45,162 bases of DNA. Origin: Candidatus Parcubacteria bacterium (GTDB lineage: Bacteria > Patescibacteriota > Minisyncoccia > Phycocordibacterales > CAYZPE01). The notes below the pieces were generated by a model. It did not search any database. It saw nothing but the letters and a program-made list of their open reading frames with translations, and was not told where the DNA came from. The position numbers and the translations under genes were made by a program. Each line of letters opens with the position of its first letter. The stretch's first letter is position 1. Below, one piece after another: positions 10,212 through 21,698 of this stretch. The DNA lies in assembly GCA_046050145.1 (NCBI GenBank), contig JBJOQC010000040.1, positions 1 to 45,162 on the forward strand, read 5' to 3'.

Positions 10212-10763
10212 TTACCCCATTATCTCTTTATCCTTCTTTTCGAAGAGGGTTTCCAAGTTTTTATTTGCCTCATCAACAATCTTTTGAGTCTCAGCCTTGA
10301 AACGAAACTTTTCATCTTCACTCATTCCACCTTCTTTCTCTTTTTTATCAATATCAGAGATTACCTTATCTCGCTCAAGACGAACTGATTTGCGAGCCTC
10401 TTCAAGTTTTGCTTTTGCAACCTTAACCAAGTCAGCTCGTCGCTCTGTTGTAAGCTCAGGAAAAATAACTCGAAGACCCTTATCGTCAACAGTTACTGAA
10501 AGACCCAAATTTGATGTTGTGATCGCCTTTTCAACAGCTTTTGCCTGTGACATATCCCATGGAGTAATACGAACTGAACGAGCATCTTCCACAGTCACAC
10601 TTCCTATCTGATTAATAGACATTAGAGATCCATATGATTCAACTTTTACAATATCCAAAACAGCAGGACTTGCCTTTCCTGTTCGAAGACTGCCAAACTC
10701 TCTCTTGAGCCACTCTTCTACTTCTTTTATTTGTGTTTTAAAGGATGTGAAATTGTATACCAT
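10212..10763 (-). CDS. frr: Ribosome recycling factor
   Basis: 183 aa. Typical RRF sequence (LRTGKASPAVLD..., ITPWD, NLGL...DDKGLRV.FPELTTERR). Confidence 0.92.
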   Translation of the reverse strand: MVYNFTSFKTQIKEVEEWLKREFGSLRTGKASPAVLDIVKVESYGSLMSINQIGSVTVEDARSVRITPWDMSQAKAVEKAITTSNLGLSVTVDDKGLRVIFPELTTERRADLVKVAKAKLEEARKSVRLERDKVISDIDKKEKEGGMSEDEKFRFKAETQKIVDEANKNLETLFEKKDKEIMG

Positions 10764-10842
10764 ATGATTTTTTACTAATATAGCTCATTGTATCAAAAAA
10801 GACCCTTATCTCAAATCTATTTAATATACAGAGCATAATTAC

Positions 10843-10870
10843 TTGACAATATTTTTATATATGCTAATAT
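10843..10870 (+). promoter_or_regulatory. Near-consensus promoter TTGACA-N16-TAATAT with TGC extended -10
   Basis: TTGACA at 10843-10848 and TGCTAATAT at 10862-10870. It points away from both flanking (minus-strand) genes. Confidence 0.6.
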
Positions 10871-10876
10871 TAATAC

Positions 10877-10970
10877 AGATCGAATGTACCTCCTATCTCA
10901 GGTTGGCCTCCCCCGACCCAACCTGAGAACTCGCCACTGGCACACCCCCGACGGTGCCAGTGGTTTTTTT
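10877..10970 (+). ncRNA. Candidate small RNA (about 90 nt) with C-rich loops and its own promoter and terminator
   Basis: The single-stranded 5' part contains ACCUCCU (10888-10894). Hairpin 1 spans 10896-10928 with loop CCUCCCCCGAC. Hairpin 2 spans 10934-10963 with loop ACCCCCGACG and is followed by T7 (10964-10970). There is no SD-preceded ORF. Confidence 0.5.
10934..10970 (+). terminator. Intrinsic terminator (plus strand only)
   Basis: 10-bp stem CCACTGGCAC/GTGCCAGTGG followed by TTTTTTT. On the minus strand no U-run follows the hairpin. Confidence 0.75.
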
Positions 10971-10977
10971 ATACACA

Positions 10978-11640
10978 CTATTTTGGACAAGTAAGTGCTA
11001 CATGCTCAAGTACAAGTTTTAATGAAGATCCTTGAGAAAATAAAAACTTTTTTAACTCTAAAACTTCACCTAAAAAATGAGAACTTTCTTTTACTAAGCC
11101 TTCCCCTTTAAGATAGCCTTCCAATGAATCTAAGAAAATAATCCCTCTATTTTTATCTTTTAGATCAATAATTTCTTTAATATACAAAATACGTTTAGAG
11201 ATATTAGCTTTTACAAAACTTTGAATTTCTTTTTTATCCACACTCTCTTTTGAAAGGTTCACTATCACCAATCGAGATTTTAGTGTCGGTAAAAGAATAT
11301 CTGCTGTTTTTGTAAGTATAAAAAAGTGAGTCCCTTCTGTTGGCTCTTCAAAAATCTTAAGTAAAGCATTCTGAGCTTCTCGATTTATAAAGTTGCATGA
11401 AATAATAAAAATCTTTTTTCCTGAAAAAGATCGTGCCTGTTGGTTTTCTTTGAGCTTGCGACTCTCCTCTATTGAGAATGTATCATGAGACTGATACCAA
11501 AAATCTGGATTACCAATCGTTTCAATACCTAAACTTTCTTTTAAAAAATCTTTCAATTCAAGTGCCGTGCTGGCATTGTCGCCCTCTATGCAGTACGCAT
11601 GGTGCAGATTATTGATATCTATAAGTTTCTTAAGACTCAT
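10978..11640 (-). CDS. holB: DNA polymerase III delta' subunit-like clamp-loader protein
   Basis: 220 aa. HHAYCIEG replaces a P-loop. The NALLKIFEEP and LPTLKSR motifs are typical of delta'/tau-family AAA+ proteins. Confidence 0.75.
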   Translation of the reverse strand: MSLKKLIDINNLHHAYCIEGDNASTALELKDFLKESLGIETIGNPDFWYQSHDTFSIEESRKLKENQQARSFSGKKIFIISCNFINREAQNALLKIFEEPTEGTHFFILTKTADILLPTLKSRLVIVNLSKESVDKKEIQSFVKANISKRILYIKEIIDLKDKNRGIIFLDSLEGYLKGEGLVKESSHFLGEVLELKKFLFSQGSSLKLVLEHVALTCPK

Positions 11641-11673
11641 TGCTTACCATTATCTCTTCTCAAAACTTTTTTG

Positions 11674-11705
11674 GCAAAAAAATACCCCCTCTGTTAGAGG
11701 GGGTA
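11674..11705 (-). terminator. Intrinsic terminator of the G+C-rich gene
   Basis: Minus-strand stem TACCCCCTC/GAGGGGGTA followed by a T-run (the reverse complement of the A-run at 11675-11682). Confidence 0.75.
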
Positions 11706-11750
11706 TGATCCCGGAGGATCACGAGTGCGGCAGAAAGGCCGCTGGCACCT

Positions 11751-12137
11751 TCACTCCACAATGGAGTGTCGCGGCCCTGCTTTCGCCTGGCCGAGGTTCG
11801 CCCACAGCAAGTGGCTGAGGGTGGTGGCGCAGTCGCGCTTCAAGTCGATGGCGGGCGTCGCAGTAGCGATGACGCCGATGCCGGTGTTGTCGAGCAGGCC
11901 GATGTTGTTGTGCTTATCAAGAATGAACACACGAGCCACGGGCGGGCCGAGGTCGATACTGCGACCGTTGCCGCCGAAGTTGCCCAGGGAAAGCGCCGGT
12001 TCGTTGAACGTGGCGCCGTCCTGATCGATGCTGATGCTGTTGTCGGCGAGTTGAGGGAAGCTGGAAGCTTCCACGGGCGGGCCGAGACTCAGCACGGAAA
12101 AGGTAGCGATGAGCATGAGAACGAAAATTCGTCGCAT
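11751..12137 (-). CDS. Secreted hypothetical protein encoded by a strongly G+C-rich gene
   Basis: AAGGAG lies 8 nt before ATG 12137. A signal-peptide-like N-terminus is present (MRRIFVLMLIATFSVLSLGPPVEA). Third-codon positions are G/C-rich in this frame. Its own terminator follows. Confidence 0.7.
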   Translation of the reverse strand: MRRIFVLMLIATFSVLSLGPPVEASSFPQLADNSISIDQDGATFNEPALSLGNFGGNGRSIDLGPPVARVFILDKHNNIGLLDNTGIGVIATATPAIDLKRDCATTLSHLLWANLGQAKAGPRHSIVE

Positions 12138-12224
12138 GAACAAGTCTCCTTGAGTGAGAAAGAACCGAACAAAGTATTTTGTCAGATGTCTCTTTTACAT
12201 TGTTATTACCGCTTAGGTATTACT

Positions 12225-12238
12225 GGATCACCTCCTTT
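12225..12238 (-). promoter_or_regulatory. 14-nt perfect complement of the canonical 16S rRNA 3' tail (AAAGGAGGUGAUCC) inside a long leader
   Basis: The plus strand reads GGATCACCTCCTTT and the minus-strand RNA reads AAAGGAGGTGATCC. No start codon lies at a usable distance. The real SD/ATG is about 90 nt further on. Confidence 0.5.
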
Positions 12239-12356
12239 ACGAGGCGATACATAACAGTGCCTTCACACACTACGAGTGTGCAAAGTAAGACGAACTGAAA
12301 CATCAAAACACTTCTGATGAGAAGTTATCACATTATAATTTTAATGTCAAGTCAAG

Positions 12357-12365
12357 TGTGGATAA
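12357..12365 (-). promoter_or_regulatory. Perfect DnaA-box consensus (TTATCCACA on the minus strand)
   Basis: The plus strand reads TGTGGATAA. The box sits just upstream of TTGACTTGACA and TATAAT hexamers on the minus strand. Confidence 0.5.
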
Positions 12366-12386
12366 GCTACTTTTCTCAACAATATT

Positions 12387-13400
12387 CTACCTCTTTGAAA
12401 TAACTGATTTTTTATATGTATCCAAATGTTCGAGTGCAATACCAGTCCCCTTCACTACACAATAAAAAGGATCCTTTGCGAGCTGAGCTTTCACACCTGT
12501 ACGACGGAGCACGAGCTCAGGAAGATTTCTAAGCTGTGAAGTTCCCCCTGTCATGATTATTCCTCGATCAATAATGTCAGATGCGAGCTCTGGTGGAGTT
12601 TCTTGAAGTACATCCTTAATAGCTTTTATCATTTCACGAAGTTCTTTTGTAATAGCTTTTACAACCTCATTTGTTTTGAGTTCAATTGAGCGAGGAAGTC
12701 CAGTCACAAAATCTCTCCCTTTTACAATCATAGAAAGTTCGTCTTCAATAGGGATCGCTGAACCTATTTTCATTTTTATATCCTCAGATGTTTTATCGCC
12801 AATCGCTAAGTTAAATGTTTTTTTAATATAGTCAGCAATTGCATAATCAATTTTATTCCCCGCAACCTTTACTGATTTTGAAGACACTATTCCTCCAAGC
12901 GAAATCACAGCAACATCAGTGGTTCCTCCCCCAATATCAACCACCATATGTCCTGCCGCTTCTTGAATAGGAATACCCGCACCAATTGCCGCGAGAATTG
13001 GCTCCTTCACCACATATGCATTTCGCGCCCCTGCTTTTATGGCAGCTTCTATCACCGCACGACGCTCAGTAGATGTAATACCAGCGGGTACCGAAACCAA
13101 TACATCAGGCTTCCAAAAACTCCATTTACCAAGAGCTTTTTCCATAAAATACCGGAGCATTGCTTCTGTCACCCGATAGTCTGCAATCACCCCATCTTTC
13201 ATTGGACGATACGCAATAATATGTTCGGGAGTGCGTCCAATCATTTGTTTTGCTTCAACACCAATTGCCAAAATTTTATTGTCCTCCTCAGACACAGCTA
13301 CAACAGAAGGCTCACAGAGAACCACACCTTTTCCAGGAACAAATACAAGTGTATTTGCAGTACCCAAATCAATACCAAGCTTTTTAGAAAACCATGCCAT
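12387..13400 (-). CDS. mreB: Second MreB-family actin homolog
   Basis: 337 aa. LGIDLGTANTLVF and VVDIGGGTTDVAVISLGG are present. It is a stand-alone gene away from mreCD. Confidence 0.9.
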   Translation of the reverse strand: MAWFSKKLGIDLGTANTLVFVPGKGVVLCEPSVVAVSEEDNKILAIGVEAKQMIGRTPEHIIAYRPMKDGVIADYRVTEAMLRYFMEKALGKWSFWKPDVLVSVPAGITSTERRAVIEAAIKAGARNAYVVKEPILAAIGAGIPIQEAAGHMVVDIGGGTTDVAVISLGGIVSSKSVKVAGNKIDYAIADYIKKTFNLAIGDKTSEDIKMKIGSAIPIEDELSMIVKGRDFVTGLPRSIELKTNEVVKAITKELREMIKAIKDVLQETPPELASDIIDRGIIMTGGTSQLRNLPELVLRRTGVKAQLAKDPFYCVVKGTGIALEHLDTYKKSVISKR

Positions 13401-13532: not shown

Positions 13533-15047
13533 ATGGAAACAATAGATAAAAAACTGGCGCAGATTGGAAAGTTTATTAGTGAACTTCGTGAAGAGCGTGG
13601 ACTTACCCAAAGCGAGCTCGCAGAAAAAATAGGCACCACACAGAGCGCTATTGCTCGTATCGAAAAAGGTGAGCAAAACATCTCCACAGAAATGCTTGCA
13701 AAGATAAGTGGAGCTCTTCAACGTGATGTAGTTCAAATTGGAAATAAATCTTTAAACTTTAAAATTGAAGGTGGAAGAAAACTTTCTGGTTCCATTGAAG
13801 TAAAAAGCTCAAAGAATGCCGCTGTTGCACTTCTCTGTGCTTCCCTTTTGAATAAAGGAAAAACTATTCTTAAAAATATGCCTCGTATTGAAGAGGTGGC
13901 TCGTATTATCGAAGTACTCCAAAGTATCAACGTAAAAGTAAAATGGGTTGGAAACGATATTGAAATAGAAGCTCATAGTATTGATCTTAAAAATCTCGAC
14001 ATAGAAGCGGCAATAAAAACTCGAAGTATTATCATGTTTATTGGTCCGCTTATTCATCACGCAAAACAGTTTAGCCTTCCTCAAGCTGGTGGATGCAAAC
14101 TCGGCTCTCGTACAGTACGCCCTCACTTTTTCGCCCTTGAAAAGTTTGGTGTTGATATAGAAACCCTTACTAAGCAGTACAAAATTAAAAGCACAAAACT
14201 TACACCAGCTGAAGTGGTCCTCTATGAATCTGGAGATACCGTAACAGAAAACGCCCTCATGGCAGCGGCCCTTATTCCTGGTAAAACAGTTATTAAGTTT
14301 GCTTCAGCGAATTACCAAGTACAGGACGTATGCTTTTTTCTTCAAAAACTTGGGGTGGTGATAGAAGGAATCGGCACAACTACACTTACTGTAACCGGTG
14401 TTAAAGAAATAAATACAACAGTTACATATTTCTTAAGTGAAGATCCTATTGAAGCAATGTTTCTCATCGCAACAGCTATCCTTACAAAATCAGCAATCAC
14501 CATTACTCGTTGCCCCATCAACTTTCTTGAAATAGAACTTTTGAAACTCGAGAAGATGGGTTTCAAATATAAAATACTCAAAGAGTATAAATCACGTAAT
14601 GGAGAAACAAATCTTGTAGACATAAAAACACAACCCTCAAAGCTTATCGCTCTTGAAGAAAAAATTGAGTGCCGACCATATCCAGGATTAAATATCGATA
14701 ACCTTCCTTTCTTTGCTGTTATCGCAACACAAGCAGAAGGACAAACATTTATTCATGATTGGGTTTATGAAAAACGAGCAATCTACTATAAAGACCTTGA
14801 TAAGCTCGGAGCTGATACCATTCTCGCTGATCCACACCGCTTCTATGTAAACGGTCCGACAAAACTAAAAGCAGCAGAAGCAATTTGCCCACCAGCGCTT
14901 CGTCCTGCGGCAATCCTCCTTATAGGCATGCTTGGAGCAGAAGGAACTTCAAAACTTCGCAATGTCTACAGTATCAACCGTGGATACGAAGATTTAGCAA
15001 ATCGACTCAATGCAATTGGTGCAAAAATAGAGCTTTTACACGAATAA
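13533..15047 (+). CDS. murA: XRE-type helix-turn-helix domain fused to UDP-N-acetylglucosamine 1-carboxyvinyltransferase
   Basis: Residues 1-65 form an HTH (LTQSELAEKIGTTQSAIARIEKGEQNIS). The rest is a MurA/EPSP-synthase fold (KLSGSIEVKSSKNAAVALLCASLL...) with the active-site Cys context GGCKLGSRTVRPH. It is one uninterrupted 504-aa ORF. Confidence 0.85.
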   Translation: METIDKKLAQIGKFISELREERGLTQSELAEKIGTTQSAIARIEKGEQNISTEMLAKISGALQRDVVQIGNKSLNFKIEGGRKLSGSIEVKSSKNAAVALLCASLLNKGKTILKNMPRIEEVARIIEVLQSINVKVKWVGNDIEIEAHSIDLKNLDIEAAIKTRSIIMFIGPLIHHAKQFSLPQAGGCKLGSRTVRPHFFALEKFGVDIETLTKQYKIKSTKLTPAEVVLYESGDTVTENALMAAALIPGKTVIKFASANYQVQDVCFFLQKLGVVIEGIGTTTLTVTGVKEINTTVTYFLSEDPIEAMFLIATAILTKSAITITRCPINFLEIELLKLEKMGFKYKILKEYKSRNGETNLVDIKTQPSKLIALEEKIECRPYPGLNIDNLPFFAVIATQAEGQTFIHDWVYEKRAIYYKDLDKLGADTILADPHRFYVNGPTKLKAAEAICPPALRPAAILLIGMLGAEGTSKLRNVYSINRGYEDLANRLNAIGAKIELLHE

Positions 15048-15132: not shown

Positions 15133-15885
15133 ATGAAAACAACAAAACGCATTTTTTGGGTTGCTGTGATATTAATACTTGGTCTTTTCGCCTACTCTTT
15201 CCTGGGAGCAAAGGGATCTATCGTAATCACAAGTCCTCTCGATCAAACCATAGTCTATCTTGATAATGTTTCTTACCGAACAATTAAGAAAGACTCTCCT
15301 CTTTCTATTCGTATTGACGCCGGAGTTCATACTATTATCACTTCTCGAGATGGTTATTTCCCATGGACAAAAGATGTTGAGGTTGTAGAAGGAGAGACTA
15401 TTACCCTCTCACCTTTCATGCTTCCTTCAAATCCTTCAGGAGAAATTATTACTGGAGCTGATCCTGAACATGACAAAATTGTGTCTCTCGTAAAAAAGGC
15501 CCCGCTCCCTGTTCGCGAATCACGAAAAAGAAGTGACTCTGGAAATGTTGAGATCTGGGTTGCAGGAAATACTATCTACGCAAACTGGATTGGAAAGAAG
15601 GAAGAAGTTCCTGTTTATTTCTGTCTTGCAGGACAAGATCCATGTGATACCACTATTGAAATATTTCGAGCAGAATCAGTTGAAAACCTCGACTTCTACG
15701 CAAACCGAGAAGATGTACTCATATTTTCTGCAGGAAATGGCGTAATGGCAATCGAAATGGATGGACGAGGAGATATCAAAAACTCTCAACCTCTCTATCT
15801 TGGTACACGTCCACACTTCTTTAAACAAGACGCCTCAACACTCTACGTTCTTGACGGAGAAACTCTCGCTCAAATTGCAATCTAA
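15133..15885 (+). CDS. Membrane-anchored PEGA-domain protein
   Basis: N-terminal TM helix followed by a PEGA-like beta-sandwich (VYLDNVSYRT...GVHTIITSRDGYFPWTKDVEVVEGETITL). The start is set at ATG 15133. Confidence 0.6.
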   Translation: MKTTKRIFWVAVILILGLFAYSFLGAKGSIVITSPLDQTIVYLDNVSYRTIKKDSPLSIRIDAGVHTIITSRDGYFPWTKDVEVVEGETITLSPFMLPSNPSGEIITGADPEHDKIVSLVKKAPLPVRESRKRSDSGNVEIWVAGNTIYANWIGKKEEVPVYFCLAGQDPCDTTIEIFRAESVENLDFYANREDVLIFSAGNGVMAIEMDGRGDIKNSQPLYLGTRPHFFKQDASTLYVLDGETLAQIAI

Positions 15886-21234: not shown

Positions 21235-21389
21235 CTTCGACCCTTACAGGGTCAGTACCCCAATTGGATATTTTTTTTCGTAAACTCAAAAATATCTCAA
21301 TCGGGCTTCGAGTCCTAACGCAAGAGAAATTGTTCTCTTGCTCCACATGGAGCATACTTAAAAACGCTTCGCATTTTATAAGTACTTTG

Positions 21390-21698
21390 CTCCGGTGGTA
21401 GGACTCGAACCTACAACCCCCTCGTTACATCAACCCTTCTATTTCTAAAAGGAATGGACTATATCATCATCCCGAAGGATGTGAGGCGCTTCCCCTAAAT
21501 CATTTTTGAATGATCGGGTACTCCTCGCGGATAGTCTCTGAACCTTCTCTTACTTAAAAGTGAGAGCTTGGCTGCTGATTGCCCTTTCCAAAAATTGGAT
21601 GAGGGTTTCCAGTCAATTCACCTCATTTTTCAACTCAAATTACTTTGAGAAGCTGCAACAACTTACAGCGAGACGCTCTACCATTGAGCTACACCGGA
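21390..21698 (-). tRNA. tRNA-Asn(GUU) interrupted by a group I intron (exons 21698-21665 and 21427-21390)
   Basis: Spliced sequence, arm by arm: UCCGGUG-UA-GCUC-AAUGGUA-GAGC-G-UCUCG-CUGUUAA-CGAGG-GGGUU-GUAGG-UUCGAGU-CCUAC-CACCGGA-G. It forms a full cloverleaf with U1-A72 and G73 as in bacterial tRNA-Asn. No CCA is encoded. Confidence 0.88.
21428..21664 (-). ncRNA. Group I intron, 237 nt, no ORF
   Basis: In P1 the exon GCUGU pairs with intron GCAGC, giving U.G at the 5' splice site, and the intron ends in G. The core elements are P AAUUUUUGGAAAGGGC (21596-21581), Q AAUCAGCAGCCAAGC (21580-21566), R GGUUCAGAGACUA (21544-21532) and S AUGAUAUAGUCC (21467-21456). GACUA/UAGUC forms P7. Confidence 0.9.

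Follow-up and report, generated by a model that had tools for sequence, protein, structure and literature searches.

How does the streamlined, AT-rich genome of an ultra-small bacterium come to carry, between two of its core genes, a single small gene whose base composition is that of a high-G+C organism? The locus that raises this question lies on a 45,162-nt contig from Candidatus Parcubacteria bacterium (NCBI GenBank assembly GCA_046050145.1, contig JBJOQC010000040.1, positions 1 to 45,162 of the forward strand), hereafter the window, where an open reading frame (ORF) of 128 codons occupies the minus strand between mreB and holB. An initial annotation, made from the sequence alone, had taken this ORF for a secreted-protein gene acquired very recently from a high-G+C donor. 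Our analyses point to a related and, in our judgment, probable explanation, namely that a genome of the Paceibacteria, within the candidate phyla radiation (CPR), recently captured a single foreign gene in a slot between mreB and holB whose content varies from one relative to the next.

A compositionally foreign coding segment in a variable slot

The mean G+C content of the window is 38.2%, and a 300-bp scan along its 45 kb found only one stretch exceeding this mean by at least 0.15, with a peak 300-bp G+C of 0.637, about 5.8 standard deviations of the 300-bp distribution. Two-state maximum-likelihood segmentation of positions 11200-12700 delimited this rich segment to 11685-12097 (413 bp, 63.4% G+C against 36.2% outside it, with a log-likelihood gain of 45 nats). 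The coding sequence (CDS, 11751-12137) has 61.2% G+C and the leader in front of it (12138-12386) 36.5%, in agreement with the composition jump and the AT-rich leader described initially; the hand counts given there, 40/60 and 40/60 for 11761-11880 and 20/60 for 10981-11040, were also exact. As the initial annotation had it, the coding frame is the minus one, with G+C at the first, second and third codon positions (GC1/2/3) of.60/.46/.78 and a three-base periodicity with chi2 = 30.6 (p = 2e-7). Its third positions (C71 G30 T19 A8) are as strongly biased as first described. Among the 47 other ORFs of the window, GC3 is.277±.060 and never exceeds.48, which puts this gene, here called the cargo, about 8 standard deviations away. 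Likewise, its synonymous codons (GGC 10/12, AAC 8/8, ATC 8/11, TTC 5/6) invert the preference of the host, which favors GGT/GGA, AAT, ATT, and TTT. Composition and codon usage thus fit a genome of roughly 60-65% G+C, and because this composition is unameliorated (GC3.78 against.28), it fits recent horizontal acquisition. It is of note that the length of the ORF is in itself no evidence, since GC-rich DNA readily yields long open frames; the plus strand over the same segment has two, of 99 and 162 codons, both with the periodicity expected of antisense shadows. Gene callers disagree over 11766-12254 (plus strand), where the Joint Genome Institute (JGI) annotation gives the 128-aa minus-strand gene together with a 67-aa antisense ORF and the Logan caller annotated the 162-aa antisense shadow ORF in place of the true gene, so that some public protein data lack the true product.

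Both junctions of this segment are authentic. A 40-kb JGI contig (L001, sample 3300044540) is 100% identical to the window over 20.4 kb, and a 6.5-kb JGI contig from a second sample (L002, 3300043408) differs by two single-nucleotide polymorphisms, at 15516 and 15546, both outside the island. In addition, a Logan contig built with a different assembler (L032, SRR35355747, two runs) covers both junctions and matches 10528-13140 with 100% identity.

The cargo is absent from the relatives examined. holB and its neighbors place the contig in the Paceibacteria/Parcubacteria, close to Candidatus Taylorbacteria, and the order murA (fused to a helix-turn-helix, HTH, domain), mreB, slot, holB, frr, rseP is kept across the class. 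Identity to the nearest relatives is 92-95% for MreB, 73-96% for ribosome recycling factor (RRF, the frr product), 76-86% for RseP, and 50-61% for HolB, so that holB, beside the variable slot, evolves unusually fast relative to its conserved neighbors. DNA homology with L022 and L025 stops at window position 12388, and from there the contents diverge. mreB and holB adjoin in L115/116 and are separated by 1 bp in L023/24, 22 bp in L028-30, and 146 bp in L025-27; the closest relative by RRF (L021, 96%) has a different ORF of ordinary G+C before holB, L117 has a gene of the DHDPS family, and L118 has a different neighbor. Among 80 further Paceibacteria mreB loci, tblastn found no match to the island protein despite the small search space, and over about 100 related loci (some 10 nearest lineages plus these 80) the count of cargo homologues is 0; comparison with sister genomes, which the initial annotation had put forward as a check, thus found the syntenic site without the cargo in all relatives examined. 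At the 61 of the 80 loci where both mreB and holB were found, the gap between them was at most 60 bp in 28, 61-200 bp in 11, and above 200 bp in 22. The gaps above 200 bp hold unrelated small ORFs (an NYN-domain protein, an IS200-type TnpA, small membrane peptides), none of the long-gap ORFs at these loci having a GC3 above.7. Because gap contents differ between relatives in this way, the mreB-holB junction is a variable cargo slot of which the gene in the window is one lineage-specific occupant.

Several occupants of this slot elsewhere deserve mention in their own right. A TnpA of the IS200/IS605 type (143 aa) sits in the slot of two more distant Paceibacteria (L015:5170-6000 and L109:3903-4729), and NYN-domain proteins fill those of L008 and L087. 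In another member of the Parcubacteria, a second and less extreme departure in composition occurs near this operon, one gene further along: between holB and frr (L011:6847-7389, minus strand) is a 180-aa ORF in DNA of about 59% G+C, against a locus mean of 44%.

The features of the locus, all on the minus strand, are as follows.

12387-13400, minus: mreB, 337 aa (Pfam MreB_Mbl), the core gene that borders the slot on its upstream side.
12138-12386, minus: AT-rich leader, 249 nt with 36.5% G+C, separating the mreB stop from the cargo ATG.
12225-12239, minus: Shine-Dalgarno-type sequence TAAAGGAGGTGATCC, 15 nt, with no start codon after it, read from sequence.
12145-12151, minus: Shine-Dalgarno (SD) sequence AAGGAGA, 8 nt 5' of the ATG at 12137, read from sequence.
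11751-12137, minus: high-G+C CDS, 128 aa plus TGA stop (11753-11751), supported by GC1/2/3, periodicity, and the JGI gene call.
12137-12066, minus: predicted Sec-type signal peptide, codons 1-24, read from sequence, leaving a mature part of about 104 aa.
11936-11951 and 12071-12086, minus: exact 16-nt direct repeat CTCGGCCCGCCCGTGG (coding strand, LGPPV), the copies 45 codons apart.
11707-11750, minus: GC-rich 3' untranslated region (UTR), 44 nt, with two small hairpins, read from sequence.
11742-11727, minus: 3' UTR hairpin GCGGC-CTTTCT-GCCGC.
11721-11706, minus: 3' UTR hairpin TGATCC-TCCG-GGATCA, A11706 being also the first base of the terminator stem.
11675-11706, minus: strong intrinsic terminator ATACCCCCTCT-AAC-AGAGGGGGTAT followed by T7, with an 11-bp stem (11706-11696/11692-11682).
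11649-11677, minus: holB promoter-like site TTGCCA-17 nt-GATAAT, sigma-70-like, 10/12 consensus matches.
10978-11640, minus: holB-like gene for DNA polymerase III delta prime, 220 aa (Pfam DNA_pol3_delta2), the downstream core gene and the other slot border.

The SD and ATG proposed initially are borne out by this inventory, AAGGAGA at 12151-12145 being spaced 8 nt from the start. The terminator, on the other hand, had been regarded as private to the gene, and this is probably not so, judging from its occurrence in related sequences. DNA homology between the window and L021 starts at 11692, inside the terminator, and over the next 32 nt, which take in the T-run and the holB promoter, identity is 97% (31/32 nt); moreover, L021, L022, and L114 each have a similar hairpin and T-run at the same position, 3' of different cargo. 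The terminator is thus probably the resident one of the slot and not part of the import, and because of this the import would be confined between the mreB stop and the terminator, that is, to 11707-12386 at most, within which the GC-rich part extends only from 11707 to about 12137. The holB promoter-like site, which the terminator directly adjoins, is part of the backbone and not of the cargo. Its -10 element lies 8 nt before the holB ATG (11640), on account of which the holB mRNA may be leaderless or nearly so.

The leader is the less certain part of the locus. The suggestion that the gene had been fitted with a native promoter and leader finds some agreement in a global alignment of the leaders of the window and L022, which are weakly colinear with a score reached by 4/1000 shuffles (p ~0.004) and which both contain AAAGGAGGT(G/A)AT, but nhmmer found no link between the two. 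The leader RNA is predicted to fold better than any of 200 shuffles (z = -3.2, 0/200), and in this fold GAGGTGAT (12234-12227, part of TAAAGGAGGTGATCC) would pair with the upstream ATCGCCTC (12248-12241). Set against bacterial 16S ribosomal RNA (rRNA) in general, TAAAGGAGGTGATCC would be a strong match to the complement of the 3' tail; a similar sequence, CGAAAGGAGGTAAT, is present in the L022 leader. The idea that GGATCACCTCCTTT (plus strand, 12225-12238) marks a fragment of a 16S gene was discarded, as the Rfam small- and large-subunit rRNA models gave no match and the flanks are AT-rich. Within 12138-12386, no terminator-like site was found, so read-through from mreB is possible, and the hexamers TTGACT/TTGACA and TATAAT are present at non-canonical spacing.

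Further afield in the window, murA (13533-15047, plus strand) encodes a 504-aa protein of the EPSP_synthase fold with an N-terminal XRE-type HTH domain, a fusion kept in relatives at 85-89% identity, more distant Paceibacteria matching the catalytic part only. The sole tRNA detected in the window, tRNA-Asn(GTT) at 21389-21698 (minus strand), has its anticodon loop split by a 237-nt group I intron (Rfam RF00028, 95.7 bits at 21435-21674), and ARAGORN needs its intron option to find it. Perfect copies of the 9-mer TTATCCACA, the DnaA-box consensus, number four in 45 kb against an estimated 0.5 or so expected, at 12357-12365 (minus strand), 212, 11234, and 37940 (plus strand); one of them lies just 3' of the mreB stop, and the same 9-mer is found just 3' of mreB in L022.

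The predicted product and its possible fragmentary nature

The cargo product begins with MRR, IFVLMLIATFSVLSL, and GPPVEA followed by SS, an arrangement with a hydrophobic stretch of about 15 residues, a hydropathy of 1.7-2.0 over residues 1-20, and V-E-A at positions -3 to -1. The n/h/c pattern is therefore present and the signal peptide proposed initially is plausible from the amino acid sequence, as a Sec-type signal. An AlphaFold2 (AF2) single-sequence model has a mean confidence (pLDDT) of 44, helix 2-16 being its sole confident part. The mature part contains only five aromatic residues (4 Phe, 1 Trp), and the two halves of the protein resemble each other only marginally, at a score reached by 51/2000 shuffles.

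The initial annotation did not recognize the protein family, and we likewise found none in Pfam, PHROGs, NCBIfam, or PDB sequences, none of which matched the 128-aa product. A word-seeded search of 5.8 billion proteins returned only the product itself, and an exhaustive phmmer (HMMER) search of 1.84 billion cluster representatives (about 15 billion proteins) found no credible homologue. Searches against plasmids and phages by tblastn and blastn gave no match to the cargo, back-translated scans of viral and metagenome contigs gave nothing (the metagenome collection being one without the source contigs), and the other five reading frames of the segment, as a concatenated query, had no homologue. 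Four phmmer matches to giant repetitive proteins were rejected, being short, covering different parts of the query, and owing their inflated scores to 3-21 near-identical repeats. The longest of them, to a beta-strand-repeat protein (P0003) with no relevant Pfam domain, has 28% identity over 103 aa and runs through the putative end of the signal peptide; its pairwise E is 5e-6, and its library-wide E of 3e-7 rests on six near-identical repeats. At best, this match hints at a beta-solenoid-like style of sequence.

These results bear on the main rival explanation, which accepts that the DNA is foreign and recent and takes the ORF for a non-functional passenger fragment, for example of a larger high-G+C gene such as one for a beta-helix repeat adhesin, which would be open and hydrophobic at its start by chance and now be decaying. 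Total orphan status, a low-confidence AF2 model, and weak matches to repeat units of giant repetitive proteins (P0003, 28% over about 100 aa) are all what such a fragment might look like; long ORFs arise easily in DNA of 63% G+C, and the 42-codon GC-rich ORF of L022 at the same site resembles a remnant. However, the SD and ATG are well placed, the n/h/c signal peptide stands right at the N terminus, and the frame is intact across the GC-rich segment, which is more than is usual for a random fragment. GC3 is, by count from the sequence, already high within the signal-peptide codons (15/24), and the matches to repeat proteins are not significant once near-identical repeats are discounted. On balance, we consider a passenger fragment unlikely, although it deserves the most attention among the rivals.

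Other high-G+C frames at the same site

Recent capture of a single gene has also to be weighed against the occurrence of further GC-rich ORFs at the same position. In L114, a 1283-bp Logan contig whose HolB is 54% identical to that of the window, an ORF of about 67% G+C (L114:1-385, plus strand; GC1/2/3 =.57/.55/.86) directly precedes holB and reads in the same direction. The contig edge truncates it, leaving at least 107 codons, with the 5' part and left junction lying outside, and it ends in TGA-AGG, a GGATCC-palindrome hairpin (GGGGATCC-AA-GGATCCCC), and a terminator before holB. No match to this ORF was found in Pfam, PDB, plasmids, or viral contigs. In L022, whose MreB is 95% identical, the 402-bp gap (L022:3599-4000, plus strand) consists of an AT-rich leader, an SD and ATG, an ORF of 42 codons (GC3.70, local G+C reaching 72%), and a terminator; this ORF could be the remnant of another high-G+C cargo. 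High-G+C cargo thus recurs at the slot, where at least two unrelated high-G+C ORFs have landed.

Homology between the cargoes of the window and L114 was rejected, as p was 0.37 for protein and, against codon shuffles, 0.15 for DNA, and the only stretch in common is CCTCGGCCCGCC (LGPP). The local DNA comparison with L022 gave p ~0.04, a similarity that is not significant or at most weak, and five cargoes compared all-against-all by blastn and tblastx had in common only GC-rich codon strings of 11-16 nt. In the core genes of these genomes, DNA identity is only about 76% where protein identity is about 95%, with synonymous sites near saturation, and because of this an unselected GC3 of.8 would not have survived since their divergence. 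It follows that the cases of the window, L114, and L022 are best read as independent recent captures and not as orthologues.

The converse proposition, that the three are fast-evolving orthologues, derived from one old acquisition or one native gene, whose G+C is held up by selection (on the structure or stability of the mRNA, for example) or by a local process with a bias, draws on the shared position and orientation of GC-rich ORFs in three related genomes, on 3' ends arranged alike in the window and L114 (TGA-AGG, a hairpin that contains GATCC, the terminator) with their common codon string CTC GGC CCG CC (LGPP), on the weak similarity of the window and L022 leaders, and on the fast evolution of the neighboring holB (50-61% against 92-96% for MreB and RRF). 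Against this stand the lack of significant window-L114 similarity and the marginal window-L022 value, the near-saturated synonymous sites from which an unselected GC3 of.8 should have decayed, the absence of excess RNA structure in the CDS (z = -1.4), and the fact that the slot is empty in several equally close relatives. We therefore regard orthology as very unlikely.

Repeated capture may also be taken further. In this clade of Paceibacteria, the stretch from mreB to the terminator and holB promoter might be a dedicated capture-and-expression slot in which a structured, conserved leader and the resident terminator serve successive genes taken up from a high-G+C partner or host, with secreted products, the window, L114, and L022 then representing three independent captures. 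This is a speculative proposal and quite unlikely in our view; if true, the cargo would be a molecular pointer to the hosts of these episymbionts.

Two explanations fare worse. A GC-rich island in an AT-rich genome often turns out to be an RNA gene, and the whole transcript does fold with z = -5.5, albeit in a test that mixes two compositions; however, the CDS by itself has no folding advantage over shuffles (z = -1.4), Rfam gave nothing at threshold (only terminator-driven matches of 13-26 bits against thresholds of about 50-115 bits), and the strong periodicity with GC3 > GC1 > GC2 is that of a real high-G+C gene, which led us to reject the structured-RNA idea and makes a structured non-coding RNA or other non-protein element with an incidental ORF highly improbable. 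An assembly chimera or contaminant join, the alternative that the initial annotation had named and that an abrupt composition switch in a metagenome-derived contig might suggest, is effectively excluded because the junctions are identical in at least two samples and with two assemblers (40-kb and 6.5-kb JGI contigs, and a Logan contig from two runs), and it would in any case need two exact joins 450 bp apart between syntenic mreB and holB flanks around a segment that has an SD and precedes the resident terminator.

Entry, source, and known parallels

If a single foreign gene was captured, the point of entry would be the stretch from the mreB stop codon to the terminator in front of the holB promoter. 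The cell probably took up DNA from its environment and recombined it into its genome, either illegitimately or with the help of homology, a mode proposed because neither a mobility gene nor a repeat is present. Transcription would proceed by read-through from mreB, from a promoter-like block in the 249-nt leader, or both, and translation would start from the SD and ATG of the gene itself; at this tolerated site 3' of mreB, the gene would rely on host signals for its expression. The product would then be exported by the Sec pathway and cleaved after VEA (residue 24). The mature protein, of about 104 aa and with an unassigned fold, would have its role, if any, at the cell surface or where a partner cell is contacted.

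Several observations weigh against this explanation. No integrase or transposase occurs within ±10 kb, and no convincing target duplication was found, the sole flanking direct repeat being AT-rich and matching at 13/17 nt. As to a tRNA target, ARAGORN found none in its default scan, and the intron-split tRNA-Asn is about 9 kb away. Donor and homologue are absent from all collections searched although high-G+C bacteria are well sampled, and a high-G+C ORF at the same site in L114 could mean an old feature maintained by selection. Furthermore, expression, secretion, and function of the cargo are predictions from its sequence, and the few aromatic residues together with the unreliable AF2 model suggest that the mature protein may not fold alone.

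The transfer from a high-G+C donor proposed in the initial annotation accordingly stands insofar as the gene is foreign, coding, unameliorated, and absent in relatives, but no donor was found; the suggestion there that the donor was a host or partner organism stays a guess, given that the collections searched hold no homologue. The source could be an unsampled high-G+C bacterium, or its mobile elements or phages. Orphan genes are common in the mobile elements and phages of bacteria. Donors of such cargo, if identified, might hint at which organisms these uncultured bacteria physically associate with. One orphan gene without an assigned function is by itself a modest finding; the locus is nonetheless a clear instance, confirmed across assemblies, of a foreign gene that has not been ameliorated in a streamlined genome, and it defines an mreB-holB hotspot in which cargo turns over among close relatives.

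Among known systems, an integron cassette has in common with this locus a small, promoterless-looking foreign ORF followed by an imperfect palindrome, and a slot with differing cargo. The core consensus of attC sites is RYYYAAC/GTTRRRY. Here, however, there is one cassette with a plain terminator hairpin, its core CTCTAAC/GTTAGAG fails this consensus at the first and last positions, and no integrase (intI) lies within ±10 kb, on which grounds an integron cassette was rejected. The small Sec-dependent secreted proteins of episymbiotic CPR bacteria resemble the predicted product in their n/h/c signal peptide, small residue at -1, and small mature domain, and differ from it in that the product here has no family, conserved domain, or confident fold. 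Horizontal gene transfer (HGT) into Patescibacteria from other phyla has been documented (PMC12455944), and recent cross-phylum imports into CPR/Patescibacteria are said to be rarely captured, with methods that require a donor missing them (PMC12455944). The events detected by MetaCHIP-type analysis in that work have an identified donor, 4-35% divergence, and a mostly within-phylum distribution, whereas the present case depends on composition and synteny only; in both, the recipient belongs to the Paceibacteria, a single gene is concerned, and the donor is possibly a neighbor or host (PMC12455944). The closest parallel in form is the genomic islet in a core-gene hotspot. Such islets differ from our locus, where there is no donor homologue and hence no phylogenetic proof, no integrase, tRNA, or repeats, and where the recipient is a streamlined CPR genome, but they have in common with it the sharp composition break, foreign codons, patchy presence, and an intergenic site with variable cargo. 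The event itself is of an ordinary kind, a gene islet in a hotspot, with a moderate twist in the recurring high-G+C nature of its cargo.

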